Assembly (NCBI GenBank): GCA_001513145.1
Contig: LFSP01000032.1
Coordinates: 20,088-84,087 of the forward strand
Reading direction: 5' to 3'
Length of the DNA: 64,000 nucleotides
Source: Clostridia bacterium DTU025
GTDB lineage: Bacteria; Bacillota; DTU025
The notes below the pieces were generated by a model that searched no databases, was not told the DNA's origin, and was given only the letters and a program-made list of their open reading frames with translations. Below are positions 12,759-48,464 of the stretch, piece by piece; the first letter of the stretch is position 1; each line of letters opens with the position of its first letter. Both the position numbers and the translations under genes were made by a program.

Positions 12759-12759
12759 G

Positions 12760-14256
12760 CTACACCCCTCCGATCCTTATGTCAGGTGCGGCGTCGATCA
12801 CCAGGAACATGTTGGCGCCGCCGCTGGACGGCACCCCCTGCCCCTTCTTGCCGCAGGTGCCCTGGGCGTCGATGACCGGATCGCCTATGCCGGCCAGGAT
12901 CGCGGCCAAGGCCGACAGCACCTTCCCGCTGAAGATCGCCGGCAGGCGCAGCCGGATGGCGGAGGTGGTCAGCTCGTATATGGCCGAGCAGTTGAATACG
13001 AAGTCGCCCTTTGCCGGGTTCACCTGCCCGCCCTTATAGCCGGAAAGGTACAGCACCACCTGGCCCTCTTGAAGGAGTCCCGCGCCCACCAGCGCGTCCC
13101 TGACGTGCTCCGGCGTAACATCCTCGAAGTCCCGGGGCATCGGTATGGGGTCGGCTACCGTGAGGCGTATGTTGCTCATGCGCGGCAACGGGACGTCCCT
13201 ATAGCTTTCCGCCCGCCCTGCTCCGGTGGGCTCGACGCCGGCCTCAGCCGCGGAGAACGCGTCTGCCAAAGCGGAGGTGAGCACGCCGTCTCGCACGATG
13301 TGCACCGTGCCCCTGAGCACGCCGTTGCTGGACACCGGCTGGTAGGCGTAGTCGCCCTCCACGGGGCCGTCGACGATGCTGACGTTGGGCGGCGCCACCC
13401 TGGTCCCAGCCATGAACTTGCCGTCGCGCCAAAGGATGGAGGTGCGCATCCCGTCGCTTTCGGCGCTGTGACCGAAGGCCTCGTGGGCAAGGCCTTTGGC
13501 CAGTGCATAGTCGATGACCAGCCTGTAGGAACCTGCCTTTACCCCCCTGGCCTCAAGGAGCGCCAGGGCGGTGCGGGCCTGGGTTCTGCTGCGCTTCATG
13601 AACCTCTCCCAGCCCTCGGGTGTGGCGATGATGGAGGCGTCGCGCCCGCTGACGGCGGCGCCGACGCTGGCAGCTCGGCCAGACGAGGCGTCCCGCGCCG
13701 TGATGCTGCTGCGGCACACGGCCCTGGGCATGTTGAACATCACGTCCGTGCCATCGCTCCTGACAACCCTCCATTCCTCATGGACGATGCCGTAGGCGGT
13801 GTGGCACGCCAGCGCCGGGTCGATGGCGGCCGTTTCAGCGCTTGCCTTCGCCACTAGGCGCTGCTCCTCCTCGTGGGAGAAGTTTTCGATACCCATGGGC
13901 GCCTCGCAGTGGACGGACGTGATCAGTCGAGGCATGCGCTGGTGTCCATCGACCTTTCTGGCTCCATATCCCTGGCTCATAGACGCGAGCCTTGCGGCGT
14001 CCTCCACCAGGCGTTCCGCCGCCTCAGGCGTTATTCGATCGGTGCAGGCGTGGCCTGTGGCTCCATCCGGCGTGATCACCTGCACGCCCATGCCTGACCG
14101 TTCGTCACAGTGTGCGCTCTGAATCGCGCCGTTGGCCGCACTGACGGAGCGCTCGGCCCTGTGCTGTATGCGGAGGATGGCGTAAACGCCCAGATCGCGG
14201 CCGCGCTCCATGGCGCGATAGCATGCTTCAGTGTAGTCTGCGACACGACGTTTCAC
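12760..14256 (-). CDS. tldD: TldD-family zinc metallopeptidase (pair 1).
   Basis: ...LAHEAFGHSAESD... HExxxH motif and TldD-like length. I chose a GTG start with GGGGGTGAG upstream, where the protein begins VKRRVADYTEACY.... Confidence 0.8.
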   Translation of the reverse strand: MKRRVADYTEACYRAMERGRDLGVYAILRIQHRAERSVSAANGAIQSAHCDERSGMGVQVITPDGATGHACTDRITPEAAERLVEDAARLASMSQGYGARKVDGHQRMPRLITSVHCEAPMGIENFSHEEEQRLVAKASAETAAIDPALACHTAYGIVHEEWRVVRSDGTDVMFNMPRAVCRSSITARDASSGRAASVGAAVSGRDASIIATPEGWERFMKRSRTQARTALALLEARGVKAGSYRLVIDYALAKGLAHEAFGHSAESDGMRTSILWRDGKFMAGTRVAPPNVSIVDGPVEGDYAYQPVSSNGVLRGTVHIVRDGVLTSALADAFSAAEAGVEPTGAGRAESYRDVPLPRMSNIRLTVADPIPMPRDFEDVTPEHVRDALVGAGLLQEGQVVLYLSGYKGGQVNPAKGDFVFNCSAIYELTTSAIRLRLPAIFSGKVLSALAAILAGIGDPVIDAQGTCGKKGQGVPSSGGANMFLVIDAAPDIRIGGV

Positions 14257-14260
14257 CTTC

Positions 14261-16380
<2,120 letters not shown>

Positions 16381-16393
<13 letters not shown>

Positions 16394-17202
16394 GTGGGCT
16401 CCCCCTTCTTCTTGGTCTCCTTGGCCTTGGTTTCAGTGTGGTTCGCGAAGGCGGAGTGGTTATGTATCGACTCGAAGCTCTCGCACTCCACGCTGAACCA
16501 GCGCACCCGCGGCTCCGCCCTGAGAGCCAGCACCACGTCTCGAAGGATGTCCTCCACGAACTTGGGGTTCTCGTACGCCTTCTCGGTGACGTACTTCTCG
16601 TCTTCACGTTTGAGCAGCGGATATATCTCGCAGCTGCCAGTGGCCTCGAGCAGCTGGATTAGGTCTTCAATCCAAAGGAAGCCGGCGGAGCTGAAGCGGA
16701 CGCGGGCACGAACCATAGTGCGCTGGTTGTGGGCGCCGTAGTCGCTGATCTCCTTGCTGCACGGGCAGCAGGAGGTTACGGGCACCTCCACCCCGAGGGT
16801 GAAGATGTGCTTGCCGCCGTCAAGCTCGCCGATGAACTCGCAGTTGTAATCCAGCACGCTGCGCTTGCGGCTGACGGGGGCCTGCTTGTTCACGAAGTAC
16901 TTGAACCTGATGACTATCTGCGCGCGGGACGCCGCCAACGCGGCGCAGGTGTCCTTCAGCACCTCGGCGATGAGCGTGTTCGAGAGCGGCTCGCCGCTCC
17001 AGCCGTACAGCACCTCTATGAACCGGGACATGTGCGTGCCCTTGAACTGCATGGGGAGGTCCACCGATAGCGACACGTTCCCCAACACCGACTGGTATCC
17101 TCCGCCCTTCTGCGCGATCTTCAGAGGCAGGTGGACGTTCTTCACGCCCACGTGCTGGATGTCGATGCCGCGGCTGTCAGGGCGGCTCTGCACGTCTTGC
17201 AT
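16381..17202 (-). CDS. folE2: GTP cyclohydrolase FolE2/MptA (type 2 GTP cyclohydrolase I).
   Basis: MQDVQSRPDSRGIDIQHVGVKNVHLPL... N-terminus typical of FolE2. ...VTSCCPCSKEISDYGAHNQR.... I chose the start at MQDV, with AGGGGGA upstream. Confidence 0.8.
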
Positions 17203-17334
17203 TGCTATCCCCCTTCGGCGCATTGGCCCATTCATTGAATGTTCTACGGGGCGCCGAAGTATCCCTGCACCCAGCGTCGGAAGGTGTTGGGAACAGGCGA
17301 GGTGTGGGCGAGGCGCTGGCGAGACGAGATCGAG

Positions 17335-17395
17335 GTTAGCGTCAAGAAGCGGCCCCGGCGACCCGCCGGCGTGTCGGTTTTCGGGTAAGCGTCGA
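17335..17395 (+). repeat. Intergenic structured repeat, copy B.
   Basis: gttagcgtcaagaagcggccccggcgacccgccggcgtgtcggttttc.... Confidence 0.7.
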
Positions 17396-17403
17396 GTCAA
17401 CAC

Positions 17404-17439
17404 GAGAGAGCCCCCCGCCAAGCAAAGGGGGGCTCTCTC
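17404..17439 (+). other. Perfect 13-bp hairpin, gagagagcccccc-N10-ggggggctctctc, followed by gcgttggtttgg.
   Basis: Read directly. Lies in the divergent folE2 / manC-pmm intergenic region. Confidence 0.6.
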
Positions 17440-17543
17440 GCGTTGGTTTGGCCCTCACCGGCCTAGAGGAACTGCACGCTGATTGTGGAAATCTCAGAAA
17501 CAGGCACGAGCCTTGCAGGGCCAAGCGAAACAGGGGTGAGAAC

Positions 17544-20048
17544 ATGAGGGCCATGCTGCTGGGAGCGGGTGAGGGCACCCGCCTGAGGCCGATCACTGCC
17601 ACGCGTCCCAAGCCTATGATACCCATAGCGAACCGTCCGATAATGGAGCACATCCTGCTGCTGCTCAAGGAGCACGGAATCACGGAGGTCTATTCCAACC
17701 TCTATTACCTTGCAGACCAGATCGAATCCTACTTCGGAGACGGGTCTGCCTGGGGCATGTCGGTGAAGTTCAAAGTCGAGGAGAAGCTTCCGGGCACCGC
17801 CGGCGGGCTGAAGAACGCGGAGGCATTTTTCCGCGACACCTTCCTCGTGATCTCCGGAGACCTCCTCACCGACTTCAACCTCACGGAAGCCATCGAGTTT
17901 CACAAGCGTCAGGGGTCCATGGCCACGCTTCTCCTCACGAAGGTGGAGAACCCTCTGGAATACGGCGTGGTCATCACGGACCAGGACGGACGGGTGCTCA
18001 GGTTCCTCGAGAAGCCAGGCTGGTCCGAGGCATTCTCCGACACGGTGAACTCGGGCATCTTCATCCTCGAGCCTGACGTGCTGGACTACATCCCCGACGG
18101 CGTGGAGTTCGACTTCTCGAAAGACCTCTTCCCCCTGCTTCTGAGGGATGGGAAGCCGCTGTTCGGCTTCGTGGCCAACGGCTACTGGTGCGACGTGGGC
18201 AACATCGACAGCTACATCAAGGCCCAGGTGGACGCGCTGTCAGGCAAGGTGAAGCTGAACGTGCCCGGAGAGCAGGTGATGCCCGGGGTGTGGGTGGGCC
18301 GGTCCGCCAAGATAAGCAGCAGGGCCGATCTGAAGGGTCCGATGGTTCTGGGCGAGAACTGCGAGATCGCGCCGGGCGCCAGGATACGAGAGTACAGCGT
18401 CATAGGCGACAACGTTATACTCGCCCCCAACTCTTTCGTGGTGCGCTCGACGGTGTTCAGCAACTCCTATATCGGCGAGGGCTCCGTGGTTTCAGGCAGC
18501 ATCATCTGCAAGAACGTGGTGCTGAAGGAGAGCGTTCGCGTGGGCGAAGGCGCGGTGGTGAGCGACGACTCGATCCTGAACTCGTCGGTGGCGGTGAAGC
18601 CCGGCGTCAGGGTGTGGCCCGGCAAGAGCATCGACGAGGGAGTGGTGCTGTCGTCCAGCGTCGTGTGGGAGCAGCGCTTCCGTCGGGAGGTTTTCTCAGA
18701 GGGCACCATATCGGGCCTTGTCAATTTCGAGTTCACCCCCGAGTTCGCGGTGAGGCTGGGCAGCGCCATCGGCGCGACGATGAAGAAGGGCGCCAGCGTG
18801 GTGGTGAGCCGCGATCCAAGCTCCACGGCGCGCATGATGAAACGGGCGCTGGTGGCGGGGCTATCCAGCGCCGGCGTGCACGTGTGCGACCTGCAGGGCC
18901 AGCCCATGCCCATACTCTGGCACATGCTCAAGCGCGACAGCTACATCAGTGGCATCCATACGTCCATGTCGGAGTCCAGCACCGAGCGCATCGACATCCA
19001 GGTGTTGGATGGAAACGGCCTGCCGCTTTCCCGCGACGACGAGCGCAAGGTGGAAACGCTGCTGTCGCGTGAGGACCCCAGGAGGGCCAGCGCCAGCGAG
19101 GTCGGCGGCATCAGCTACTTCCCCAGGGCCGTGGATTACTACGTCGAAGACTGCATGGACCGGATCAACGTTGAGGCCGCCAAGTCCCACAGGGTCAAGG
19201 CCGTCGTAGACTGCGGCTACGGCTTCGTCGGAGGGGTGCTTCCGTCCATTCTGGTGAAGATGGGCGTGGAAGTCACCAGCCTCAACGCCATTGAGCAGCC
19301 TAGCAAGATGCCGAAGAACGATGCGGAGTTGGAGCGAGCCAAGGGCGAGCTGGGCTCCATCGTCAGAACGGTCGGCGCCGACCTGGGGATCCTCATCGAA
19401 CCACAGGGCACCCATATGCACGTGGCGGACGAGACCGGCCGAGTGCTCTCCGACCTGGAGCTGGCGTACCTTTACGCGCTGCTCCTGGTGCGGGCGAAGG
19501 GCAGGGGTTCGCGAGGAGTCACTGTGCCCAGCTTCATGCCTAAGATGCTGATAGCCGCCCTCACGGCCAACGGCGCCACGGTGTACCGAAGCAAGGTGCA
19601 GGCCCGCTCCCTGGTGGACCTGGCCAGGACCAGCAAGTCGTTGGTGTGCTGCGACCTTCACGGCGGGTTCCTCTTCCCCGAACTCCACAACGGCCTTGAT
19701 GCCATGTTCGGCGCGGCGAAGTTCACGGAGCTGGTGGCGGTGGAATCGGCTCCGCTGTCGCAGCTTGCTCAGCTGGTGCCCGAGCACAACCTCGTGGCCG
19801 ACGTGATGCCGTGTCCATGGGAGATGAAGGCCCAGGTCATGCGGGAGCTCCTCGGGAAGCTGGACGACCCCGCGGTGGACACCTTCGACGGCTATCGGCG
19901 CAACATCGACGATAGTCACTGGTACATGGTGCTTCCCGACGCGGCGCGGCCGGTGTTCAGGCTCTACGCTGAGGGCGGCAGCAGGGCACAGGCAGAGGCC
20001 ATGCTGGCGAGGGCCAGAGACGAGGTGGCGGAGGCCATCGAGGGTTAG
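17544..20048 (+). CDS. Bifunctional fusion: mannose-1-phosphate guanylyltransferase (NTP-transferase plus left-handed beta-helix) joined to phosphomannomutase/phosphoglucomutase.
   Basis: MRAMLLGAGEGTRLRPIT...GTAGGL..., hexapeptide repeats, then the PGM/PMM alpha/beta/alpha domains ...VVDCGYGFVGGVLPSIL.... I chose the start at MRAM, with GGGGTGAG upstream. Confidence 0.85.
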   Translation: MRAMLLGAGEGTRLRPITATRPKPMIPIANRPIMEHILLLLKEHGITEVYSNLYYLADQIESYFGDGSAWGMSVKFKVEEKLPGTAGGLKNAEAFFRDTFLVISGDLLTDFNLTEAIEFHKRQGSMATLLLTKVENPLEYGVVITDQDGRVLRFLEKPGWSEAFSDTVNSGIFILEPDVLDYIPDGVEFDFSKDLFPLLLRDGKPLFGFVANGYWCDVGNIDSYIKAQVDALSGKVKLNVPGEQVMPGVWVGRSAKISSRADLKGPMVLGENCEIAPGARIREYSVIGDNVILAPNSFVVRSTVFSNSYIGEGSVVSGSIICKNVVLKESVRVGEGAVVSDDSILNSSVAVKPGVRVWPGKSIDEGVVLSSSVVWEQRFRREVFSEGTISGLVNFEFTPEFAVRLGSAIGATMKKGASVVVSRDPSSTARMMKRALVAGLSSAGVHVCDLQGQPMPILWHMLKRDSYISGIHTSMSESSTERIDIQVLDGNGLPLSRDDERKVETLLSREDPRRASASEVGGISYFPRAVDYYVEDCMDRINVEAAKSHRVKAVVDCGYGFVGGVLPSILVKMGVEVTSLNAIEQPSKMPKNDAELERAKGELGSIVRTVGADLGILIEPQGTHMHVADETGRVLSDLELAYLYALLLVRAKGRGSRGVTVPSFMPKMLIAALTANGATVYRSKVQARSLVDLARTSKSLVCCDLHGGFLFPELHNGLDAMFGAAKFTELVAVESAPLSQLAQLVPEHNLVADVMPCPWEMKAQVMRELLGKLDDPAVDTFDGYRRNIDDSHWYMVLPDAARPVFRLYAEGGSRAQAEAMLARARDEVAEAIEG

Positions 20049-29275: not shown

Positions 29276-30679
29276 TCACTTTCCAGTAATGGAGCATCCG
29301 TCAAGCAGGATATGGGGAAGCCTGTACGCGCCCAGCACCCACAGCTCGTCCGAAAGCCCCACCACCTGCGTGAGAAGCTCGTAGATGTTGCCGGCTATCA
29401 TCATCTCCTTCACCGGGTACGCCACGACGCCTCCCTCAACGTAATGGCCGCCCTTGACCACGCCGGAGAAGTCGCCGCTGGCAGGATCGACGCCGCCTGA
29501 AAACCTGTTGACGATCAGCCCGCGGTCGCACTGGGCGATGAGCTGCTCCAGGCTGTGCTTCCCTGGAGACAGCACCATGTTAGTGGTGGACACCCCCGGC
29601 AGGCCGGCATCATTCCCAGACGCCCTGCCGTTAGACTCCCTCCCGTCGCGCCGAGCCGTGTAGCAGTTGTAGAGGTAGTCCTGGAGCACCCCGCCGGTCA
29701 CCAGCTCCAGCCGCCTTGCCGGCACACCCTCGCGGTCGAACGCCGTCGACCCCGACGCCTGCGGTATGCCCGGATCGTCCACGACGCTGACCATGGGCGA
29801 CGCCACCTGCTTGCCAAGCATCCCCTTCCACTTGGACCGCCCGGTCTGCACGATCTCGGCGTTGCACGAGTAGGCTATGGGCTCCAGCACCAACTCCAGA
29901 GCGGCGTACGGCGTGAGCAGCACCTTGCCGCGGAAGCTCGGAGCGCTGCGGGCGTCCAGAGCAGCCACGACGCGCCGCGCCAGGTCCCGCCCGACTCCGA
30001 ACGCATCCACCTGGCCCAACGCGCACGACTCCGCTACCCCCAGGTCAAACGACGACACCCTGTCGCCGTCCACTGCGAACGCTATGCCCTGCGTCGAGGC
30101 CACCGTCTTGTGCTGGCTCAGCCTCACCCCGTTGGAGTTGGCCACCGTCTTCTCGCTGACCTCCGCCCTGAACATGGCGGAATCCACCGTCACCCGGCCA
30201 TCGTAGCCCAGCGCCCCCTCAAGGAACGCACCGGCCTGCTTCATCGCCCCGGCAAGGTCCATCCCGGCGATGCCCTCGTCGTACAGGCCTTCAACCGGCT
30301 CTACACCCGCCGCGCCCCTATCCGGCTGCGCCAGGCACCGCGCCGGGTCAGCCGGTGACGCCTCCGCGATGGCCATGGCGGCCGCCAGCGCGGAATCTAT
30401 CGACTCGGCCGTCAACAGGTTCGTCGAAGCGAACCCCTGCTTGAACCCGTCGTCCGATGCCATCAGAACCCTCAACCCGATGCCGCTGTACCTGTCGCCC
30501 TTTGGAACGTGGATGTCGTTCTTCTCCACCATCACCTCCACGCTCCGCGACTCCAAGTAGAAAGCTTCTACCGCCGCCGCGCCGCGCGCCAGGCCACGCT
30601 CTATGGCCAGATCGCACCAGTCGAATCCGCGGGTAACGCTCATGCTCCTTCCTCCTCCGACCTCACTGTTCTCGCTCAT
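29276..30679 (-). CDS. TldE/PmbA-family metallopeptidase subunit (pair 2).
   Basis: TldD/E-family signature without HExxxH. It overlaps the stop of the upstream TldD-like gene. Confidence 0.75.
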   Translation of the reverse strand: MSENSEVGGGRSMSVTRGFDWCDLAIERGLARGAAAVEAFYLESRSVEVMVEKNDIHVPKGDRYSGIGLRVLMASDDGFKQGFASTNLLTAESIDSALAAAMAIAEASPADPARCLAQPDRGAAGVEPVEGLYDEGIAGMDLAGAMKQAGAFLEGALGYDGRVTVDSAMFRAEVSEKTVANSNGVRLSQHKTVASTQGIAFAVDGDRVSSFDLGVAESCALGQVDAFGVGRDLARRVVAALDARSAPSFRGKVLLTPYAALELVLEPIAYSCNAEIVQTGRSKWKGMLGKQVASPMVSVVDDPGIPQASGSTAFDREGVPARRLELVTGGVLQDYLYNCYTARRDGRESNGRASGNDAGLPGVSTTNMVLSPGKHSLEQLIAQCDRGLIVNRFSGGVDPASGDFSGVVKGGHYVEGGVVAYPVKEMMIAGNIYELLTQVVGLSDELWVLGAYRLPHILLDGCSITGK

Positions 30680-32078
30680 CCTGGCGTCCTCCGATGGTCA
30701 CGCGGCAGCGCAGGTAAGGCCCGCCGGCGTCCACCTTGGCCGGCTGCCACTTGCCGCAGTGTCCGGCGCCCATGTCCAGCTTAAAGCCGCTCGAGACCGC
30801 GTCAACGCTGCTCAGCACTTCGAACGCCTGACCCGATATGGTCACGCCCTTCACCGGCTCGCACAGACGCCCGTCTCTTATCCGCCAGGCCTGCCCCACG
30901 CTGAACATGAACTCAGCGTCGGAGTCGGCTTGGCCGCCCTGGCCGAGTCCAGAGAGGAAGAAACCGTCCTCAACCTCGGATATCATGGCTTTGAGGTCAT
31001 CCTTTCCCGGGAGGATGAAGGTGTTGGTCATGCGGATCAGGGGCTCGTCCCGATACGTGAACGCCCTGGCGTTGCCCCTCGGCGCCGCGCCAAGCATGGC
31101 CGCGGACTCCCGGTTGTGCAAGTAGGCACGGAGCACGCCGTTCTCTATCAACACGGTGCGCTCGCCCTGCACGCCCTCGTCGTCCACCAGCACCATTCCA
31201 GCCGCGCCCGGCACGTTCCCGTCGTCCACCATCGTCACCAGCTCCGACGCCACGCGCTGACCGATTTTACCCTTGGCTATCGACCCTGCCAGCACGAAAT
31301 CCGCCTCAACCGTGTGCCCGATGGCCTCATGCGATAGCACCCCCACCAGACCGGGATCCAGTATCACCGTGTACTGCCCGCCCGGCGCGTACCCGGCATC
31401 CAGCTTCTCGATGGCGCCCTGGGCCGCCCTGTCCACCATCTGGTCAAGGTCGCCCTTCTCCATCAGCGCCTGCCATGACCCGGTGACTCCCCACGCCTTG
31501 ACATCCGTCTCCAGCTTGCCATCTCGCCCCGCCGTGGCGAACACGTGGATGCTCTGCTTGCTGTCGACGATGTGCGCCGCAGCGCCGTCGGTGTTCACGA
31601 TGTACTTCTCGTCGTCGTAGTGGGTGTACCTCACCACGGAGCCCACGATCAGCTCTGACCGCGACCGCAGCCGCTCTTCCGCCTCCAGCACGCGGGCTAT
31701 CTTCTCAGCGATGGAAGGCTCCGAACCCCGCTCATAGTAGACAAACTCGCCCTCGCCCATTCTGGCAGGGGCAAGCTTAGCGCGCTCCTTCTTTATCCTA
31801 GCCGCAGCAGCCGCACCATCGATGGCGTCCGCCAGCGCACTGCACAGCCCGCTCTCGGTCACATCGCTGGTGGACACGAACCCCCAGCAGCCGTCGATGA
31901 GGCATCTGACCGCGGCTCCCGCCAGAGTCCTCTGCTCGGCCTTGGCCAGGGTCCCGTTCCTCGCCTCGATGATGGTGGTCACCCTCTTGTGATACCTGAT
32001 CTCAGCGTAGCCATCTACGCCACGCAGCACCGACTTGAAGACCTCTATCATCACATCACTCCCTCTGCGCTCATACAA
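30663..32078 (-). CDS. TldD-family zinc metallopeptidase (pair 2).
   Basis: ...LSHEAIGHTVEAD... HExxxH motif and TldD-like length. Confidence 0.8.
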   Translation of the reverse strand: MYERRGSDVMIEVFKSVLRGVDGYAEIRYHKRVTTIIEARNGTLAKAEQRTLAGAAVRCLIDGCWGFVSTSDVTESGLCSALADAIDGAAAAARIKKERAKLAPARMGEGEFVYYERGSEPSIAEKIARVLEAEERLRSRSELIVGSVVRYTHYDDEKYIVNTDGAAAHIVDSKQSIHVFATAGRDGKLETDVKAWGVTGSWQALMEKGDLDQMVDRAAQGAIEKLDAGYAPGGQYTVILDPGLVGVLSHEAIGHTVEADFVLAGSIAKGKIGQRVASELVTMVDDGNVPGAAGMVLVDDEGVQGERTVLIENGVLRAYLHNRESAAMLGAAPRGNARAFTYRDEPLIRMTNTFILPGKDDLKAMISEVEDGFFLSGLGQGGQADSDAEFMFSVGQAWRIRDGRLCEPVKGVTISGQAFEVLSSVDAVSSGFKLDMGAGHCGKWQPAKVDAGGPYLRCRVTIGGRQDEREQ

Positions 32079-32268
32079 TCACTTACACTATACAAGCAAC
32101 TGTTGCGATGTCCTGCCGCTCTCAGGTCTGAGTTTGCCGAAACTTGGAGACTGCCTCCGGCACACTGCCGCGAGCTGGGCATCTTTCCTGTAGATTCCTG
32201 TAGACTTGTTACCACCACCCGCAGACTACCGGCGATCTCCCCGGAAGCCGCGGTTCGCGCGATCAGAC

Positions 32269-32347
32269 GTGAGCGTCAGAAAGCGGTCGCGGCGACCCAC
32301 CGGCGGGTCGAAGCCCTGCGAAAGCGACCCACCCATGGGTCGGCCCC
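32269..32347 (+). repeat. Intergenic structured repeat, copy A.
   Basis: gtgagcgtcagaaagcggtcgcggcgacccaccggcgggtcgaagccc...gcgacccacccatgggtcggcccc. Aligns with copy B and with the reverse complement of copy C. Confidence 0.7.
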
Positions 32348-32477
32348 AGCAGCAGCGGCGGTGGGAGGCGGCTCTTTCGCGCCGGCTTGACGTTCACGAT
32401 CAAACCTGCAAACTGCCAGCTCTTCATCTGCTGATAAGCAGCTGGCTGAACCTTTGCGCTCTCGAAGCCATCGCATC

Positions 32478-32507
32478 TTGACCCAACTGCCGCGGGCGGG
32501 ATATAAT
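32478..32507 (+). promoter_or_regulatory. Promoter of the imuB operon: TTGACC, 18-nt spacer, TATAAT.
   Basis: Consensus hexamers lie immediately upstream of the LexA box. Confidence 0.55.
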
Positions 32508-32510
32508 TCC

Positions 32511-32534
32511 CTTACCGAACATATGTTCGGTAAG
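32511..32534 (+). promoter_or_regulatory. LexA operator (Gram-positive Cheo/SOS box). A perfect 24-bp palindrome, cttaCCGAACATATGTTCGGtaag.
   Basis: Core CGAACATATGTTCG matches the Cheo-box consensus CGAAC-N4-GTTCG exactly. It lies 4 nt after the -10 hexamer and 30 nt before the imuB start. Confidence 0.85.
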
Positions 32535-32563
32535 GCATGGTGGTCTCGGAGGTGAAGACGCCA

Positions 32564-33766
32564 ATGCGGTACATAGCATATCTGAACCTACCCTACCTGC
32601 AATACTGCTCCAGCGTCAAGCCGGAGCAGCGCGGCCTGCCTTTGGCGGTGCTGGAGAACAACACCGTGGTCAGCATGTCGCCGGAGCTCGCGGCTCTGGG
32701 GGTGGCTCTCCGTGCCTCCCGCAGACAGGTGAAGCACGTCTGCCCCGAAGCCATGTTCGTGCAGCACGACAAGGACGCTTCCCTGCACCTGGCCAAAGGG
32801 GCATGGGACATATGCGCCGACTACACTCCCTTAGTGGAGCCCTCCGAGGTGAACTCCGCCTTCCTCGACATCACCGGATGCGGCGACGCCCGGTCCATAG
32901 TGGCGGAGCTATCCCGAAGGTGCGCCGAAACCCTGGGTTTTACGCCACACATCTGCGTCGCCCCCACCAAACTGGTGGCCAAAGCCGGCGTTCCGCCCAT
33001 AAGCTCCGAGGAGCGCGCTGCCTGGATAAGCCCTGACGAAGTCCTCGACTTTCTGGCACCGCTTCCGGTCCAGGCCCTATGGCCGCTGAGCAAGGCAACG
33101 CTGGAACACCTCTGGCGCCTTGGCGTGAACTCCGTGGCCCAGCTCAGGGCGGTGCCAGTGGAGGAGCTCATCGACCAGCTGGGCGAGGAGGGCCTGCTTG
33201 CACATCGGCTGAGCCTTGGGATCGACCACTCTAGGGTGCAGGCGGCATACCCGGAGCCGTCCGTGAGCTGCTCGTTCCGTTTCGACCAGCCGCTGGATTC
33301 CTGGGACGACATGCTCAAATGCCTGAAAATATGCGCCGCCCAGATCAGTTCCGAGCTTGACCAGGCCCAGGCGTCGACTTCCTCCGTGGAGCTGACAGTG
33401 CAGTCCGCCGGCTACGCCGACCTGGTCAAACGCCGCGCGGCCCTGCGCTCGCCCGCCAGCTCGGCCCAGGCGCTGGAAAGCGCCTTAATCAGGGCGGCCC
33501 GAGCGGCAACCCGGGCCAGCGCAAACGCGCCGGTGATCTCGCTGCACGCGCGCGCGACGAACCTGTCTATGCCAGCCGGCCTGCAGCTACGCATGTTTTG
33601 CCCCGAACTTCAGGGGCTGGCCCCGTCCGACGATGCATGCCACGCCGACGAGCTGGCCAGGGCCATCGAAAGCATCCGCCAGCGTTTCGGCGCCAAGAGC
33701 GTGCTCACCGCCGACGCCATCGTCCGCACCAGGCGCGACAGGATGATCGCCGCGTCTCTGCTGTGA
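32564..33766 (+). CDS. imuB: ImuB-like Y-family DNA polymerase paralog (SOS mutasome subunit).
   Basis: MRYIAYLNLPYL... N-terminus of DinB/ImuB type. GGAGGTG lies 9 nt upstream. It sits directly upstream of dnaE2. The ORF-track start at 32537 lacks an RBS. Confidence 0.75.
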   Translation: MRYIAYLNLPYLQYCSSVKPEQRGLPLAVLENNTVVSMSPELAALGVALRASRRQVKHVCPEAMFVQHDKDASLHLAKGAWDICADYTPLVEPSEVNSAFLDITGCGDARSIVAELSRRCAETLGFTPHICVAPTKLVAKAGVPPISSEERAAWISPDEVLDFLAPLPVQALWPLSKATLEHLWRLGVNSVAQLRAVPVEELIDQLGEEGLLAHRLSLGIDHSRVQAAYPEPSVSCSFRFDQPLDSWDDMLKCLKICAAQISSELDQAQASTSSVELTVQSAGYADLVKRRAALRSPASSAQALESALIRAARAATRASANAPVISLHARATNLSMPAGLQLRMFCPELQGLAPSDDACHADELARAIESIRQRFGAKSVLTADAIVRTRRDRMIAASLL

Positions 33767-33841
33767 GCCGCCTAGCCGCCTGGCCACAAGCTCCTTAACC
33801 TGAAGAACCCGCAAGCGCAAGTCGGAGGTCGAAGGTACATC

Positions 33842-34093
33842 GTGAGCCGAAAGGTGGAACGTCCCATAAGGGTGGAAGAGTCCACACAGGGCCCGCAGGG
33901 CCATCCTGTCAGCTTCTACTGGTCGGGGCGCTGGAACCGCGTCGACGCCGTGATCGACTCCTGGCGCGAATGCGGCGAGTGGTGGGACGGCGCGGAGGAA
34001 CACGATTACTTTCTCGTATCGTCCGGCTCCGGATGCTATGAGCTGAGCCGTACCTGCCATGGCCAGTGGGAGCTTTCAAGGATAATCGACTAG
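33842..34093 (+). CDS. Hypothetical 83-aa protein encoded between imuB and dnaE2.
   Basis: GTG start with GGAGGTCGAAGG upstream. Sequence MSRKVERPIRVEESTQGPQGHPVSFYWSGRWNRVDAVIDSWRECGEWWDGAEEHDYFLVSSGSGCYELSRTCHGQWELSRIID. It fits neatly in the gaps, 75 nt after imuB and 18 nt before dnaE2. Confidence 0.5.
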   Translation: MSRKVERPIRVEESTQGPQGHPVSFYWSGRWNRVDAVIDSWRECGEWWDGAEEHDYFLVSSGSGCYELSRTCHGQWELSRIID

Positions 34094-34111
34094 GAGCTAG
34101 GAGCCATCGCA

Positions 34112-37100
34112 ATGAGTCCAATGAGCCTGCCCGACCTTTTCGGCGGCTTCGTGCACCTGCACGTTCATTCCCAGTATTCGTTCCTCGACGGCGCCAGTCG
34201 CTGTTCCGAGCTGGTAGCCAGGTGCGCCGAGCTGGGCATGGGCGCCATGGCCATAACGGACCACGACAACGTCAGCTGCGCCGTGGAGTTCGCGCGCGCC
34301 GCGGCCGAACACGGCATCAAGCCCATCCAAGGCGTGGAGCTCACCATGGAGGGCGGCGCGCATCTCACGCTCCTTGCGGAGAACCCTGAGGGCTACGCCA
34401 ACATCTGCAACATCCTCACCGATGCGTACATGAACTCGTCTGACCGACGTCGCCCCGAAGCCCGTGTTCATACACTTGAGCGCCACAGCAAGGGCCTGAT
34501 AGCCCTGTCAGGATGCCGCCGCGGCGCCATCCCCGCCGCCATCCTTGCCCGCCAGCACGACCGGGCCATGCAGGCAGCCGAGGCGCTGGTGAAGATCTTC
34601 GGGAAGCGCAACTTCTACATAGAGCTGCAGCACCCCATGACCCCGGGAGCCGCAGCTCTCAACTCCGCCTTGATTCACCTGGCCTCCAGCCTGGGAGTGG
34701 GGGTGGTGGCCACCAACAACGTACACTATACGCACAAGTCCGGATTCGAGCTGCACGACGTGCTCACATGCATCAGAACGCTGACGACCCTCGACGACAT
34801 CCATCCCGAACGGCACATAAACGCGGAGAACTATCTGAAATCCGCAGCCCAGATGCGGGAGCTTTTCGCGCTCGTTCCCGAGGCCGTCGTCAACACCCTG
34901 GCCATCGCCGAACGGTGCAGCCCAGGCCTGAACCTCGGCCGCAAGCTGTTCCCCAAGTACGAGCCGCCCGCAGGCGAATCCCCCGCATCGCTCTTGCGCC
35001 GCCTGACCATGCAGGGCGCCGAGGCCAGGTACGGGCGAATCACCCAGGCCGTGCGCGACAGGCTCGAGCACGAGCTCAACGTCATCATCACTCTGGGCTT
35101 TGAAGGCTACTTCCTTGCAGTTCATGACATAGCGGCATGGGCCCGCGGGCGCGGGATACGATGCGCCGGACGGGGCTCCGCAGCCGACTCGGCGGTGGTG
35201 TACTGCCTGGGCCTCACCAACGTTGACCCGATCGCCCGTGGACTGCTGTTCGAGCGATTTCTGAGCCTGGAGAGGGCTCAGAGGCCCGACATCGACATCG
35301 ACTTCCAGTCCGACCGCCGCGACGAAGTGGCCGATTACGTTTACGAGCGCTACGGCCAGGGCCATGTGGCGTCCGTATGCACCTTCAACACCTTCCTCGC
35401 CCGGTCGGCTGTGCGTGACGTGGGAAAGGCCCTGGGCATCCCCGAGCCCGAGATCGACAGGCTCGCCAAGCGTCTGCCGCACATCCCCGCCGACGGCGTG
35501 CGCGCCGCCTTCTCGCGCTATCCGGAGCTCAGGGATTCAGGCATACAGCCCCATCGTTTCGAACTTCTGCTCGACCTGGTGCACCAGATGGCCGGGCTGC
35601 CACGGCACATCGGCACGCACCTGGGAGGCCTCGTGATATCCGGCGAGCCCCTCACGTGCGTCACCCCGCTTCAGATGTCCGCCAAGGGCGTGCCCATCAC
35701 GCAGTTCGACAAGGACTCCATCGAGGAGCTGGGCCTCATCAAGCTCGACCTGCTGTCGTTGCGCACCCTCTGCGCCGTGGAACGCGCCCAGGAGCTCATA
35801 AAGGCCCCGGAGTTCAGCTACGACCGCATCCCCCACGACGACGCCGCCACCTATTCCATGCTGCAGTCCGGCGAGACCATAGGCGTCTTCCAGCTGGAAA
35901 GCCCCGCCCAGCGGGCCCTGCAGCCGCGGCTCAAGGCGGATTCCTTCGAGGACATCGTGGCCAGCGTGGCGCTGATAAGGCCGGGCCCCATCAAAGGCAA
36001 CATGGTGGAGCCCTTCGTGGCCAGGCGTCGCGGCAAGGAGGAGGTCAGCTACGTCGACCCGCGCCTCGAGCCCATCCTCAAGAAGACCTACGGCGTCGTG
36101 TTATACCAGGAGCAGGTGATCCAGATAGCCACCGCTATCGCTGGATTCAGCCCTGGAGAATCCGACAGGCTCCGCAAGGTGATGACCCACTGCCGCTCAA
36201 TGGTGGAAATGGAGGCCATAGGCCGCGACTTCGTGGCCAAGGCCATGGCAAACGGCACCGACAAGGAGACAGCCGAAACCATATTCTCCTACATCGTGGG
36301 CTACGCGGGCTACGGGTTCTGCGAGGCCCACGCGGCCGCCTTCGCCGACACGGCATACCGCACCGCCTACCTGTGCAGGCATTTCCCGGCGGAGTTCTTC
36401 GCGGCCCTCTTAAGCGCCCAGCCCATGGGCTTCTACCCGCCGCGCACCCTGATCGTGGAGGCGCGCCGACGCGGGGTAAGAGTGCTGCCGCTTGACGTCA
36501 ACGCCAGCAAGCACAGGTATACGGTGGAGAACGGGGCCATAAGGGTTGGACTAATGCAGGTGAAAGGGATATCCGCCTCCGACATACAGAGCATAGAGGA
36601 CGCCCAGGCCAGCGGCCCATTCACCTCAGCCGCCGACTTCGCCGCCCGCACCGATGTGCCCGTGGACGTCTTCGAGAACCTGGCGCTGGCAGGGGCCTTC
36701 GATTCCATCGAGCCCAACCGACGAGCCGTGGTGTGGGCTGTAAGGCGCCTTGCCAGCTCCTCCGCCGCAGCCAGGAAGCTCAGCTCAGAGGCGGAGGCCG
36801 CAGGGCAGATGCGCCTTTCCGGCCTTGAAGACGGTGCCTCCCTCAAGGCCCACGTCGCGGAGGCCTCCAGGAGCATCCGAGACTTCACCCCCATCCAGAG
36901 TTTCGCCGCCGAGACGGAGATCCTGGGATTCTGCGTGCATAAGCACGCCATGGAGTTCTACCGCTCCTCCCTGGCCAGATGGGGGGCGCTCACGGCATCG
37001 GAGATCGCCCAGGCCAAGCCGGGGCAACTGGTGAGGGCGGCCGGCCTCGTCGTGCGCCCGCACCGGCCGCCCACCAAGAGCGGCCGCACCGTGGTCTTCC

Positions 37101-37333
37101 TGTCGCTGGAAGACGAGACCGGCCTCACAGACGTGACGGTGTTCGAAAGCGAGTACCAAAAATACGGCGCCGCCATATTCGGCAGCGCGGCCTTGCTGGT
37201 GGAGGGCACGGTATGCGACAGGGGCGGAGCGGTGTCAATCACGGCAAAGAGGATCCGCCCTTTTCGGGGTCGACGAGGGCACGCGTCTCCTCGCCAACCA
37301 TCGGCCAGTACCGACCGAGAAGCATGTCGGTGA
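34112..37333 (+). CDS. dnaE2: Error-prone DNA polymerase DnaE2 (ImuC).
   Basis: Intact PHP start FVHLHVHSQYSFLDGASRCSELVARCAELGMGAMAITDHDN..., ...DIDIDF..., a C-terminal OB fold, and an operon position behind LexA-box/imuB. Confidence 0.85.
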   Translation: MSPMSLPDLFGGFVHLHVHSQYSFLDGASRCSELVARCAELGMGAMAITDHDNVSCAVEFARAAAEHGIKPIQGVELTMEGGAHLTLLAENPEGYANICNILTDAYMNSSDRRRPEARVHTLERHSKGLIALSGCRRGAIPAAILARQHDRAMQAAEALVKIFGKRNFYIELQHPMTPGAAALNSALIHLASSLGVGVVATNNVHYTHKSGFELHDVLTCIRTLTTLDDIHPERHINAENYLKSAAQMRELFALVPEAVVNTLAIAERCSPGLNLGRKLFPKYEPPAGESPASLLRRLTMQGAEARYGRITQAVRDRLEHELNVIITLGFEGYFLAVHDIAAWARGRGIRCAGRGSAADSAVVYCLGLTNVDPIARGLLFERFLSLERAQRPDIDIDFQSDRRDEVADYVYERYGQGHVASVCTFNTFLARSAVRDVGKALGIPEPEIDRLAKRLPHIPADGVRAAFSRYPELRDSGIQPHRFELLLDLVHQMAGLPRHIGTHLGGLVISGEPLTCVTPLQMSAKGVPITQFDKDSIEELGLIKLDLLSLRTLCAVERAQELIKAPEFSYDRIPHDDAATYSMLQSGETIGVFQLESPAQRALQPRLKADSFEDIVASVALIRPGPIKGNMVEPFVARRRGKEEVSYVDPRLEPILKKTYGVVLYQEQVIQIATAIAGFSPGESDRLRKVMTHCRSMVEMEAIGRDFVAKAMANGTDKETAETIFSYIVGYAGYGFCEAHAAAFADTAYRTAYLCRHFPAEFFAALLSAQPMGFYPPRTLIVEARRRGVRVLPLDVNASKHRYTVENGAIRVGLMQVKGISASDIQSIEDAQASGPFTSAADFAARTDVPVDVFENLALAGAFDSIEPNRRAVVWAVRRLASSSAAARKLSSEAEAAGQMRLSGLEDGASLKAHVAEASRSIRDFTPIQSFAAETEILGFCVHKHAMEFYRSSLARWGALTASEIAQAKPGQLVRAAGLVVRPHRPPTKSGRTVVFLSLEDETGLTDVTVFESEYQKYGAAIFGSAALLVEGTVCDRGGAVSITAKRIRPFRGRRGHASPRQPSASTDREACR

Positions 37334-44791: not shown

Positions 44792-47779
44792 ATGAACAGG
44801 CATTTCAGAACCGTCGCATTTCTTGCGTTCATACTATGCGTCGTCATGTTGAGGCCTCTCGCGCCGCAAGCGGTGGCGGCCACGGAGCGGGCGCTGCCCG
44901 ATGGAAACGGCGCGGGCGCTGCGGCCTCGGAGGCCTGGCCGCGGGCTAGCATCGTCCTGCCCATCGCCCCCGGGGTCACGGTGGAGCGCCGCAGCTGGCT
45001 GGGGAGCCTCGGCTGGATGCAGCTTACGGTGGTCAGGGTGGACCTTTCGTCATCGGCCGTGGTGACGAGGCCGGTTCTGTCGGAGTCGTCGCTTTCGGTG
45101 CCGGAGAAACCCACAGTCATCGCTGAGAGTAACGGCCTCCTGGCGGCTGTGAACGGCGACTTCTTCGATATGGGCGCTACAGGCGCGCCCCTTTCGATGG
45201 TGGCCGCAGAGGGTAGAGTGATCCGGTCGCCAAGGGTAGATCCGGATTTCGCGTCCATCGCCATAACCCGCGACGGCCAGGCTGTGCTGGGGCACTGGGA
45301 GTGGGTGGGCGAGCTGGCATCGATGGATGGCTCCTTCACGCTGCCGCTGGCGGGGCTGAACGAGGTCTCGGTGCCTCCGGATTCCGCTGTGCTCTACACG
45401 GAGGAATGGACCTGGTCGAAGGTGCCTGACCACGCTGACGCCGGCCACATCGCCATAGGCGACGGCATCGTCATGTGCGTGGTGCCGGGTTACCCCTTCA
45501 CAGCGCCGTCTACGTACGTGGTTGCGCGGGGAGAAGCCTGGCGCCAGCTGCGGCAGATAGAGCCGGGGCAGGAAGTGGTCATACGCTCGGAGCTGAGGCC
45601 GGGGTTCACACGGCTGGAAGCTGCGTTTTCCGGCAAGCCTGTGCTCGTGCTGGATGGCGAGCCTGCGCCCGACCTGGCGAGGCACGCCACCATCGGCGCT
45701 GCGTATCCGGCGCCCAGAAGCGCCGCCGGAATCACTGCCGACGGGCGCACTCTGATCTTGGCCGTGGTGGACGGAAGGGCTCAGGGGGCAAGAGGCGCGA
45801 CCCTCGAGGAGATGGCCCACATCATGATCGAGTTGGGAGCGGTCAGCGCGCTCAATCTGGACGGCGGGGCTTCGTCGGCGGTGGTGGTGAGAGACCCCAT
45901 CTCAGGCGCCCTGCAGCTGGCCAATCGTCCGTCGGCTGGGGCTGAGCGCCCGGTGCCCTATGTAGTCGGCGTGCTACCAGCGATGGCTGAAGATGGGCGG
46001 GCCGGCGGCGGGGAGACCGCTGGTGGCGAAGCCGCCGGCGAGTATGAAGCCGGTGGGCAGGCTGTGCACGGTCAGCCGCCGGGCGAGAGCTCGGCGCTGG
46101 ACATGCACACGGACATGGACTCGGGCTTGGGCTCGGGCTGGAGCTCTGCCCCGAGCTTTATCGCAGTGCAGGTGGACGCAGGCGATTCGGTGCACGTCGT
46201 TCCCTCGCTGGCCAGGGCGGTGGCTGACAGCGTCGATTTCTTCACTGGTGACGAGATCGTGTGTGCATCTGGAATTCCGTTGCAGCTTAAGGTCGTGGCG
46301 TTCGACTCCAGCATGAAGCGCATCCCGCTGCAGCGGGCTGCAAAGACGGTGGACGCTGAATACGTTGAACAGGAAGGTGGCAATAGCGCACAAGGGGAGT
46401 CCGGCGCGAGGGATGTACCCGCGGACCATGATGCAATGGGCTCGGATGTTGCGGCCGCTGCCGAGGCCGCGTTCGAGCACTCGGAAGAGACCCAGCGCAC
46501 CGGAGGAGCCGAATACTTGGGCATCCCTGGTGGCCCCGTGTGGACGGTGCTGCATCCTAAGAACCTCCGGCACGACGGCGCCGCGCACGTGGACGCCGTG
46601 TGGCACCCCTCTGCCGACGGCACAGAGGTCATATTCTCGCCGCTTCCGGGGTCCAGGACTGAGATAACGGTCGTCTGGGAGATGCCTGACGGCACCCGAA
46701 CCAATACAGTCACTTTCGCCGTGCGATGCCTGCCCGGGTCGCCGGCTGCGCCTCTAGGCGTTCTCGGAGAGCCAGCATGGACGATCCTGGACGACTTCGA
46801 ATCAGGCCGGCCGTGGTCGGCCGCGTCGTCCTCGCCTGAGGTGTTGGCAGCAGTGTCCTTCGTGAACGCGGCGCCGCACGCGGCGGCTGCCGACAGGGTT
46901 ATTGAGGCGCTGCCCCAGTACCCGAGCGGAACGGCGCTCTCCCTCAAGTTCGACTTTAGCTCACATGAGGTCACCCGGGCGGCCTACGCCCGCCCGATCC
47001 GCCCCATTCCCTTGCCGCCGGGCACTGAGGCCATCGGACTCTGGGCGTGGTCAGACGGAAACGGGCACTGGCTCCGCGCGACGGTCACCGACTCCGAGGG
47101 CGTGAAGCACCCTCTGGATCTTGCGCGCATGGACTGGCTAGGATGGAAGTTCGTCACGGCCGCGTTGCCCGACTCCTTGCCTGAGAGTTGGCTCATGGGA
47201 GAAGTGTACCTGACGCAGGTGTACCTCGTGGAGTTCAAGCCCGAGCTCTCCTCAGCCGGCGCCATCAGCTTCGACGGCCTGAGCGCCCTCGCACCTGCGG
47301 CGCAGCTGGTGGAGGAGTCCGCGCAGTCGGATGAGGACGGCCTGCTGCTAGGCCTTGCCGACCCGGGAGCCACCGGCACCGTCATAACCCTCGACGCGAG
47401 TGAGCCCATACCCTGGCCCCTCCTCCGGGCTGAGTTGGAATCGTTCAAGCTCAGCGATGAACTGGAGCTTACCGTGGTGCTGAGAGACGGCAGCGCCGTC
47501 GCTCGGCCCGGGCTGCCGGTGCCGGTCGGCCAGCTCAGCCTGGCGATCGGCGGATCCTTTGACGACGCGGTTGCGGCCGAGTTGCTCCTCGAGATGCTGG
47601 CTGACTGCGTCGACGGTTCCACCAGGGTCACCCTGGTTCAGGAGGACGCCGCTTCGTCGAAAGCAGGAGAGGCCAGGGCGTTGTACAAAGGGGTGTTGCT
47701 CATCTGGCGGCCGGGGCCGGAGGCGGTGGAAGAAAGCGCGCGCGGCCACGGCGGTCAATCCGGCCGGTCGGACCAGTAA
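44792..47779 (+). CDS. Large secreted protein with an N-terminal phosphodiester glycosidase domain (DUF2233/NAGPA-like) and about 550 aa of unassigned C-terminal region.
   Basis: Signal peptide MNRHFRTVAFLAFILCVVML.... Contains ...NGDFFDM... and ...ALNLDGGASSAVVV... motifs. Confidence 0.6.
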   Translation: MNRHFRTVAFLAFILCVVMLRPLAPQAVAATERALPDGNGAGAAASEAWPRASIVLPIAPGVTVERRSWLGSLGWMQLTVVRVDLSSSAVVTRPVLSESSLSVPEKPTVIAESNGLLAAVNGDFFDMGATGAPLSMVAAEGRVIRSPRVDPDFASIAITRDGQAVLGHWEWVGELASMDGSFTLPLAGLNEVSVPPDSAVLYTEEWTWSKVPDHADAGHIAIGDGIVMCVVPGYPFTAPSTYVVARGEAWRQLRQIEPGQEVVIRSELRPGFTRLEAAFSGKPVLVLDGEPAPDLARHATIGAAYPAPRSAAGITADGRTLILAVVDGRAQGARGATLEEMAHIMIELGAVSALNLDGGASSAVVVRDPISGALQLANRPSAGAERPVPYVVGVLPAMAEDGRAGGGETAGGEAAGEYEAGGQAVHGQPPGESSALDMHTDMDSGLGSGWSSAPSFIAVQVDAGDSVHVVPSLARAVADSVDFFTGDEIVCASGIPLQLKVVAFDSSMKRIPLQRAAKTVDAEYVEQEGGNSAQGESGARDVPADHDAMGSDVAAAAEAAFEHSEETQRTGGAEYLGIPGGPVWTVLHPKNLRHDGAAHVDAVWHPSADGTEVIFSPLPGSRTEITVVWEMPDGTRTNTVTFAVRCLPGSPAAPLGVLGEPAWTILDDFESGRPWSAASSSPEVLAAVSFVNAAPHAAAADRVIEALPQYPSGTALSLKFDFSSHEVTRAAYARPIRPIPLPPGTEAIGLWAWSDGNGHWLRATVTDSEGVKHPLDLARMDWLGWKFVTAALPDSLPESWLMGEVYLTQVYLVEFKPELSSAGAISFDGLSALAPAAQLVEESAQSDEDGLLLGLADPGATGTVITLDASEPIPWPLLRAELESFKLSDELELTVVLRDGSAVARPGLPVPVGQLSLAIGGSFDDAVAAELLLEMLADCVDGSTRVTLVQEDAASSKAGEARALYKGVLLIWRPGPEAVEESARGHGGQSGRSDQ

Positions 47780-47815
47780 GACCAGTGGGACCGGTAGGAC
47801 CAGTGGGATCAGACA
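47771..47815 (+). repeat. 9-bp tandem repeat GACCAGTRG, about 4.5 copies, spanning the stop codon of the preceding gene.
   Basis: gaccagtaa gaccagtgg gaccggtag gaccagtgg gatcag, read directly. Confidence 0.7.
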
Positions 47816-47878
47816 GGCCGGCAGGGCCAGTCAAGCTGCTGCGGCCCGTCGGGCCAGAGCCTGCCTGCGCCGTGGCTG

Positions 47879-47955
47879 GCGCGGCCGACCCATGGGTAGG
47901 TCGTTCTGGCTGAAAACCGACCAGCCGGTGGGTCGGCGCGACCGCAAAGCCACCC
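47879..47955 (-). repeat. Intergenic structured repeat, copy C, in reverse orientation. Probably the terminator of the rplM-rpsI operon.
   Basis: Its reverse complement, gcggtcgcgccgacccaccggctggtcggttttc...cgacctacccatgggtcggcc, aligns with copies A and B. Confidence 0.7.
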
Positions 47956-48071
47956 GCTCCCCATCCGCGCCCCCCAAACCCCCACCAGTGCAGCCAGCGA
48001 TGGAAAGAGCGAGCCCGATCCGATCCTGCGATCCGCGATCGAAGCTCGCTCCAAACCCTTGAGGCTGTATG

Positions 48072-48464
48072 TTACCTCTTTGAGAACTGAGGTGCCTTGC
48101 GGGCCTTCTTCAGTCCGTACTTCCGGCGCTCCTTCATCCTGGGGTCACGCGTGAGGAAGCCAGCGCGCTTCAGGACCGACCTGAGGTCGGGATCCGCTTC
48201 AGCCAGGGCCCTGGCGATGCCGTGTCTCACCGCTCCTGCCTGGCCTGATACTCCCCCGCCCTGCACGTCGACGTCCACGTCGTACTTGCCGACGGTGTTC
48301 GTGACCGCGAATGGCGCGTTCACCACGAGCTCGAGAGTGCGCCTGCCGAAGTACTCCAGCACGTCCTTGTCGTTGACCTTAATGATTCCGGTGCCCGGGC
48401 TCAACCTAACGCGGGCGACGGAACACTTGCGCCTACCTGTTGCCATGTACTTCAGTTGTGCCAC
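48072..48464 (-). CDS. rpsI: 30S ribosomal protein S9.
   Basis: ...[12 protein letters not shown]..., C-terminal ...[18 protein letters not shown]. Confidence 0.95.

Follow-up and report, generated by a model that had tools for sequence, protein, structure and literature searches.

A lineage-specific family of hairpin-bearing intergenic repeats, probably of the MITE/REP kind, in an uncultured anaerobic-digester bacterium

Three short intergenic sequences in the 64-kb stretch of DNA analysed here (the window) are homologous copies, A, B and C, of one hairpin-bearing element, and a fourth copy, D, lies on metagenome contigs. We put at about 0.6 the probability that the copies are a lineage-specific, non-autonomous dispersed repeat of the MITE or REP kind, a reading that follows from their inverted ends, hairpin-rich core, lack of coding capacity and intergenic placement in any orientation, together with the insertions seen relative to related genomes and the direct repeats that flank two of the four copies (B and D). 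The element is an ordinary feature, a new family within a well-known kind of element; this small repeat family was previously undescribed, and its host is an uncultured, globally recurring anaerobic-digester bacterium. Its practical value is modest, with no bearing on any long-standing open question. Such repeats break assemblies (in one public assembly an NN gap falls exactly over copy B), lengthen the spacers between genes and can lead searches for motifs or riboswitches astray.

Homology of the copies

The original prediction had singled out three similar stretches of about 70 nt in the window, while allowing that their likeness might be only that of GC-rich, low-complexity sequence. The three are genuine homologous copies, at the following positions:

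17334..17462, + strand: copy A; 49.5 bits with the covariance model; nhmmer 5' module E=2.9e-12, 3' module E=7.8e-6
32268..32398, + strand: copy B, the best-preserved unit, 131 nt; 81.9 bits with the covariance model; nhmmer matches to the 5' and 3' modules
about 47815..47958, - strand: copy C; core well conserved, 3' module weakly recognisable; 87.6 bits with the covariance model at 47881-47945; nhmmer 5' module E=1.2e-20, 3' module E=1.6

When the window was compared with itself by blastn, B matched C at 77% over 87 nt (E=6e-15), A matched B at 81% over 53 nt (E=2e-8) and A matched C at 82% over 34 nt (E=2e-4); the B-C pair is the longest inverted repeat of the 64-kb window. A 29-nt core pattern had 0 matches in 100 dinucleotide-preserving shuffles. 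The covariance model, built with both hairpins, was scored at every position of the window, and apart from the three copies and the antisense self-matches on B and C (19.8 and 17.9 bits) its top match, within a pmbA-like coding gene, reached 15.5 bits. The window holds exactly three copies, and nhmmer and the covariance model found no more in the adjoining 6.7 kb on the left and 9.9 kb on the right, taken from other assemblies of the same organism. That the similarity is a chance product of composition might be argued from the window's G+C of 64% and from the lone chance matches to the 22-position core pattern that turn up in unrelated GC-rich genomes. Such an origin is vanishingly improbable, however, given E-values down to 6e-15, the empty shuffles, scores of 50-88 bits against 15.5 for the top unrelated match, and homology that spans two or three separate modules. 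The low-complexity alternative is therefore refuted: the copies are real and not an artefact of GC composition.

Anatomy of the element

By multiple alignment and nhmmer the unit consists of a 5' end motif, then two hairpins in tandem, a middle stretch that varies and, last, a 3' module. Its length exceeds the one first proposed because the conserved 3' module comes after the hairpins: B measures about 125-131 nt, A ~129 nt, C ~145 nt and D, as an insert, ~386 nt, sizes that depend on ends judged on four decayed copies, the family being known here from four loci. Copy B illustrates the arrangement best:

32260..32271, + strand: left flanking direct repeat CGATCAGACGTG, a possible target-site duplication; 10/12 identical to 32397-32408, spacing 137
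32268..32278, + strand: left terminal inverted repeat CGTGAGCGTCA, which pairs with 32388-32398 in the minimum-energy and centroid folds
32293..32310, + strand: hairpin 1, CGACCC-ACCGGC-GGGTCG; RNA dG -14.4 kcal/mol
32325..32342, + strand: hairpin 2, CGACCC-ACCCAT-GGGTCG, a direct repeat of hairpin 1 at 32-nt spacing, 84% identical
32364..32398, + strand: 3' module GGCGGCTCTTTCGCGCCGGCTTGACGTTCACG, also in A and D; nhmmer E=1.3e-6
32388..32398, + strand: right terminal inverted repeat TGACGTTCACG, 1 mismatch to the consensus of the terminal inverted repeats
32397..32408, + strand: right flanking direct repeat CGATCAAACCTG, from a repeat search

The end motif of the element is CGTGAGCGTCA(A)G, and the 5' end motif reads CGTGAGCGTCAG in B and GGTTAGCGTCAAG in A. 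The core, GCGGTCGCG(G/C)CGACCCACCGGC(G/T)GGTCG, includes hairpin 1 (CGACCC-N6-GGGTCG), which in A, C and D is followed directly on its 3' side by GTTTTC, a T run that is absent in B. Hairpin 2, CGACCCACCCATGGGTCG, repeats hairpin 1 directly, so that B, C and D each carry two 18-nt palindromic units 32 nt apart; both units have the same CGACCC/GGGTCG stem and loops that start alike (ACC...), and they can pair with each other into a single long hairpin. The bases before the hairpins are GG, GC, AA or AG, followed by CGACCC, and the copies have no GTAG-type 5' tetranucleotide beside the hairpins. All of the inverted repeats named in the original prediction are present, although GGTCGC-G-GCGACC is perfect in B only; CGACCC-N6-GGGTCG occurs twice in B and twice in C, in the latter each time with one mismatch or wobble, and the palindrome ACCCATGGGT is found in both of these copies.

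The 3' module GGCTCTTTCGCGCCGGCTTGACGTTCACG is the reverse complement of the 5' end; it is common to B, D and A (nhmmer E ~1e-6) and faint in C. The short ends of the unit are accordingly mutually inverted (CGTGAGCGTCA(A)G... / ...CTTGACGTTCACG), with a candidate terminal inverted end of the type CGTGAGCGTCAAGCC. How far such ends can be recognised differs among the copies: in B, 11 bp are paired end to end, in D the inverted ends are 23 nt long at 74%, in C none is recognisable, and in A the 33-nt inverted arms are internal to the copy. As single-stranded DNA the 131 nt of copy B fold end to end (z=-3.84), and its right terminal inverted repeat (32388-32398) contains an outward-facing TTGAC hexamer. 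No Pfam domain was found in the ORFs that overlap A, B or C.

Copy A runs from the end motif GGTTAGCGTCAAG through an imperfect hairpin 1 and GTTTTC into a palindrome with 33-nt arms; its 5' end, hairpin 1 and 3' module are present, the last as the right arm of that inverted repeat, and its hairpin 2 is unrecognisable. The inverted repeat holds a perfect 13-bp GC stem (RNA dG -33.8 kcal/mol, z=-5.6). The parts of A and C are placed as follows:

17359..17376, + strand: hairpin 1 of A, CGACCC-GCCGGC-GTGTCG, with one C/T mismatch; GTTTTC at 17377-17382
17384..17459, + strand: inverted repeat of A, arms 17384-17416 and 17427-17459, 79% complementary
47918..47935, - strand: hairpin 1 of C, CGACCC-ACCGGC-TGGTCG; dG -11.5 kcal/mol; GTTTTC at 47912-47917
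47886..47903, - strand: hairpin 2 of C, CGACCT-ACCCAT-GGGTCG

Runs of G3-6, prone to form G-quadruplexes, lie directly 5' of C (47950-47986, - strand) and of D (4895-5000 of contig L024); these tracts are not mutually alignable, and there is none at B and a weak one at A.

Gene contexts in the window

All four copies are intergenic and occur in either orientation relative to the neighbouring genes. Pfam scans and inspection of start codons show that the gene contexts of A and B had been interchanged in the original prediction. Copy A is found in a divergent spacer of 342 nt, flanked by folE2 (16381-17202, - strand) and a nucleotidyl-transferase/phosphomannomutase fusion gene (17545-20048, + strand), and it is in this folE2 spacer that the 13-bp perfect hairpin adjoins A. 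That hairpin (17404-17440) reads GAGAGAGCCCCCC-N10-GGGGGGCTCTCTC, then GCGTTGGTTT, and is situated ~100 nt upstream of the sugar-nucleotidyl-transferase gene; it scanned as terminator-like on the + strand, on which no gene lies upstream of it.

Copy B is in a divergent spacer as well, 458 nt long, with tldD/pmbA (30663-32078, - strand) on one side and imuB (32537-33766, + strand) on the other; the promoter and LexA box of imuB follow ~80 nt downstream of it:

32478-32507, + strand: imuB promoter TTGACC-18-TATAAT, from a consensus scan (context only)
32510-32535, + strand: 26-nt perfect palindrome CCTTACCGAACATATGTTCGGTAAGG with a Cheo/LexA box (context only)

This promoter, which is near-consensus, opens an SOS mutagenesis cassette (32478-37333) of imuB, a DUF6504-like small ORF (33842-34093) and dnaE2 (34112-37333), in which the DUF6504 gene stands between imuB and dnaE2 instead of the classical upstream imuA; promoter and Cheo/LexA box are conserved at four relatives' loci. 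Two of the relatives' contigs (L013, 1-272; L014, 1-266) end ~270 nt upstream of imuB, the former beginning with a 24-nt perfect palindrome, GGATATGCCCCGCGGGGCATATCC, and these species may have repeats or hairpins of their own upstream of imuB. On the other side of the spacer, the TldD/PmbA-family metallopeptidases form two separate adjacent pairs (11451-14295 and 29276-32078), 4 paralogues within 21 kb.

Copy C occupies the 292-nt convergent spacer between rpsI (48072-48464, - strand) and a NAGPA-domain gene (44792-47779, + strand). It is indeed on the strand of the rpsI transcript, as the original prediction had it, but rpsI's own, stronger terminator-like hairpin precedes it:

48006..48052, - strand: terminator-like hairpin of rpsI, GAGCGAGC...GCTCGCTC + TTTCC; fold of 47970-48062, z=-2.1 (context only)

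Around the stop codon of the NAGPA gene there is a 9-nt tandem repeat (GACCAGTGG / GACCGGTAG ...), scanned over 47780-47815, just past the stop, and the product of that gene varies from 977 to 1003 aa across otherwise near-identical strains.

A fourth copy and the source organism

Beyond the window the family has one additional member, copy D, which occupies part of the 535 nt that separate a GNAT gene from mraZ on three independent metagenome contigs (L018, L024 and L028). Over 60 nt it shares 92% identity with C, and the covariance model gives it 91.6 bits; D also has the 3' module, and a second segment of it aligns with B at 78% over 50 nt (E=7e-7). It is antisense to GNAT and mraZ alike and at least 300 nt from the nearest promoter. 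D probably belongs to the species of the window: the tetranucleotide correlation of its locus with the window is 0.88-0.89, as compared with 0.85-0.95 among parts of the window and 0.77-0.86 for relatives, and both loci have similar low coverage in ENA sample ERZ2647986. At the mraZ promoter, three evenly spaced GTGG repeats (AAGTGGAGCGAAGTGGAGCAAAGTGGTGAG; 4713-4800 of L024 and 8800-8878 of L029) are presumably MraZ operator boxes, and the promoter is nearly identical between the organism of D and a relative at 71% RsmH identity.

Exact-protein look-ups place the source organism, which is near-clonal, in >200 biogas or anaerobic-digester assemblies, with MAGs GCA_012521735.1 and GCA_002385365.1 and a 152-kb JGI contig as examples. 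Its dpaA and spoVS genes and the RsmH relatives named Limnochordales (57-59% identity) point to an uncultured, high-GC, Limnochordia-like member of the Bacillota.

The core pattern GCGGNCNCGNCGACCCNCCGGCNNGTCG, for which an exact match was required at 22 positions, was found at 8 loci in metagenome contigs, with true copies in L018 and L024 only (both D); the remaining metagenome matches are likewise isolated ones in unrelated GC-rich taxa. Its 6 matches in GTDB representative genomes were rejected as single chance matches in unrelated GC-rich taxa, and L002, the sole genome-contig match examined in detail, falls within a CDS. Viral contigs gave 0 matches to the core pattern, and three scans of them with other parts of the element (hairpin 1 and its T run; hairpin 2; the 3' module) returned chance matches only. 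Neither nhmmer nor the covariance model found further copies over the D locus and ~75 kb of relatives; a six-frame translation of the four copies, used as a chimeric protein query for spurious ORFs over other copies, had 0 matches, and blastn in distant mode found no counterpart in plasmids and phages.

Empty sites and flanking repeats

Gene order is conserved in the nearest sequenced relatives, which do not have the element. Copy B is absent from the orthologous tldD-imuB spacer of two relatives' contigs (L015 and L016, ImuB 51% identical), where the spacer is 206 nt long vs 458 nt; the imuB promoter and LexA box (32478..32535) are kept in relatives that lack B, and those of L015 and L016 align perfectly with the window. 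Copy D is likewise absent from the orthologous GNAT-mraZ spacer of L029 (RsmH 71% identical), which is 158 nt vs 535 nt. The ~386-nt insert that contains D is bordered by the GNAT terminator on one side and the mraZ promoter with its GTGG boxes on the other, both conserved, and CACAAGAAAAACAG / CAAAAGAAAAAGAG, 12/14 identical, flank it at precisely the borders that the relative's spacer marks. The direct repeats at B and D are 12-14 nt long and imperfect, those of D being T-rich low-complexity sequence; no flanking direct repeats were found at A and C, and no other small repeats at the relatives' loci. The relatives that supply the empty sites are distant ones (ImuB 51-56%, RsmH 71%), and what their lack of the element demonstrates is lineage specificity, not recent movement. 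The proposal of a REP-like family specific to this lineage fits these results: an additional copy, none in ~75 kb of relatives, and empty sites for B and D.

Every strain sampled has A, C and D, in essentially the same sequence, and no insertion polymorphism was seen among those strains. B is covered in one other assembly only, an older public one (L038; JGI AAW_1006162, 1060-1510), where an NN scaffold gap replaces 83 nt, namely the 5' half of B and the hairpins; this apparent 83-nt deletion was rejected as a strain polymorphism on account of the gap.

Origin of the copies and alternative explanations

As a dispersed repeat of the MITE/REP kind, the copies would have arisen by insertion through an enzyme encoded elsewhere in the genome and acting in trans, and would then have decayed, A losing hairpin 2 and D becoming compound. 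One candidate mobiliser is a DDE transposase that would recognise the inverted ends; another is a Y1/RAYT-type enzyme, to which the hairpins would be the signal in single-stranded DNA. Of the two, the DDE transposase is favoured by the inverted ends and the apparent flanking duplications, and the pair of same-strand hairpins is compatible with a route of the Y1/RAYT or IS200-IS605 type. Neither a transposase nor a RAYT or IS200/IS605 gene was found in ~81 kb around the window (by Pfam for the window itself) or in ~20 kb around D. Effects on neighbouring genes, through the extra hairpin and U4 or the outward TTGAC hexamers, are probably incidental.

Such pairs of same-strand hairpins recall the hairpins at the left and right ends of IS200/IS605 elements, or REP units in tandem. 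A mobile repeat driven by its hairpins, whether REP/REPIN or IS200/IS605-derived (PATE-like), with single-stranded DNA handled by a Y1 transposase (RAYT/TnpA), would account for two same-strand units with identical stems and similarly starting loops, and for their capacity to pair into one long hairpin. We nevertheless consider it unlikely: the hairpins lie well inside the element instead of in a subterminal position; direct repeats flank B and D, whereas IS200/IS605 elements make no target duplication; the ~100 kb of the species examined contain no Y1 transposase gene; and the copies lack the GTAG-type 5' tetranucleotide, a mark described for some REP families only (PMC3184786).

The original prediction had also offered terminator-like and small-RNA readings, according to which an RNA module with a function, be it a terminator-like element (hairpin 1 plus GUUUUC), an attenuator or a small RNA, would have been copied around. 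The sequence GTTTTC after hairpin 1 in A, C and D, the position of C on the rpsI transcript strand and hairpin energies of -10 to -15.6 kcal/mol speak for it, but the terminator scan had no match at hairpin 1 of A, B or C (the only terminator-like site in these copies is the 13-bp hairpin specific to A), the T run, which B lacks, measures 4 nt, and the z-scores of hairpin 1, 0.7 to -1.35, are unremarkable. Only C is downstream of a co-oriented gene, and rpsI there has its own stronger hairpin; with A and B in divergent promoter regions and D antisense to both neighbours, the other copies have nothing upstream to terminate. The orientation of the copies relative to genes is also inconsistent: A and B point at the start of a downstream gene, C comes after a gene on its own strand, and D lies antisense to its neighbours. 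As for a small RNA, consensus scans found no promoter-like sites inside A, B and C, and Rfam gave no match on the whole window at the gathering threshold, with noise (mir-341 and similar) on the spacers of B and C at E<=10. Comparison of 12 stem pairs in five sequences, a sample of low power, lends no support to a conserved structure: there are 0 compensatory pairs, and the changes comprise one G-U wobble and three mismatches. In relatives these genes stand without the element, and all told an RNA function is quite unlikely to explain the family.

Sequence alone might also suggest paired protein-binding sites in DNA, two 18-bp CGACCC-N6-GGGTCG palindromes 32 bp (~ three helical turns) apart, to which a dimeric regulator might bind, or else a protein of the nucleoid or of recombination. 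In B, C and D the near-palindromes have the same half-sites and a constant spacing of 32 bp, and A and B are located within divergent promoter regions, all of which agrees with this; however, C lies between convergent gene ends and D at least 300 nt from the nearest promoter, half-site mutations are tolerated, the homology goes well past the palindromes into the end motifs and 3' module, the neighbours have no common theme (SOS polymerase, folate, sugar nucleotide, ribosome, cell division), and the same promoters in relatives lack these sites. We regard such a role as very unlikely. Also considered, and rejected for want of motif or Rfam support and of partner genes, were parS, dif, attC, a group II intron fragment and an omega-RNA. 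A less ordinary and very unlikely reading is that the element is a mobile cassette of two hairpins, recognised by a protein or an RNA and bearing outward TTGAC hexamers, which would rewire the expression of neighbours such as the SOS-controlled imuB-dnaE2 mutagenesis operon or mraZ, or else that it is the trace left in Limnochordia-like Bacillota by an undescribed mobilisation system guided by hairpins (Y1/RAYT-like or other).

Comparison with known systems

With intrinsic terminator or SPRITE-like elements the present family has in common a dispersed repeat in which a short U run comes after a hairpin; it differs in that the U run is only 4 nt, is missing in B, and the orientation is unfit in 3/4 copies. 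PATEs derived from IS200/IS605 share with it two similar same-strand hairpins in a short non-coding element; here, unlike there, the hairpins are internal, direct repeats flank the element, and there is neither tnpA/tnpB nearby nor an Rfam match to omega-RNA/HEARO.

The likeness to REP, BIME and REPIN sequences lies in paired short GC-rich imperfect palindromes in extragenic DNA (B, C and D), in the folding of the pair into a longer hairpin, and in the location of some copies at convergent gene ends (C and D). Against it stand units that are direct, not inverted, the lack of a GTAG-like leader, an apparently low copy number, extra conserved end modules and the absence of a RAYT gene from the sequence examined.

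A MITE is defined as an element of <~200-400 bp with terminal inverted repeats around a core, flanking direct repeats, no transposase and a long stem-loop (PMC3184786), and the present family has the small size, the lack of a transposase ORF, dispersed copies (four loci) and absence at orthologous sites (B and D). From the MITEs Correia/CREE of Neisseria, RUP of S. pneumoniae, ERIC and Bacillus bcr1 it is set apart by the lack of sequence similarity and of a known partner IS, by the 4 copies seen and by its internal tandem hairpins, which are not typical of those families; its apparent duplications, at 12-14 nt, also differ from the TA of Correia. Like all of them, it is an intergenic, dispersed, non-coding element in the range of ~100-400 bp, with putative inverted ends around a core, a long stem-loop fold and imperfect direct repeats at some copies, and, like Correia elements (PMC3184786), it carries outward-facing TTGAC (-35-like) hexamers at its ends.
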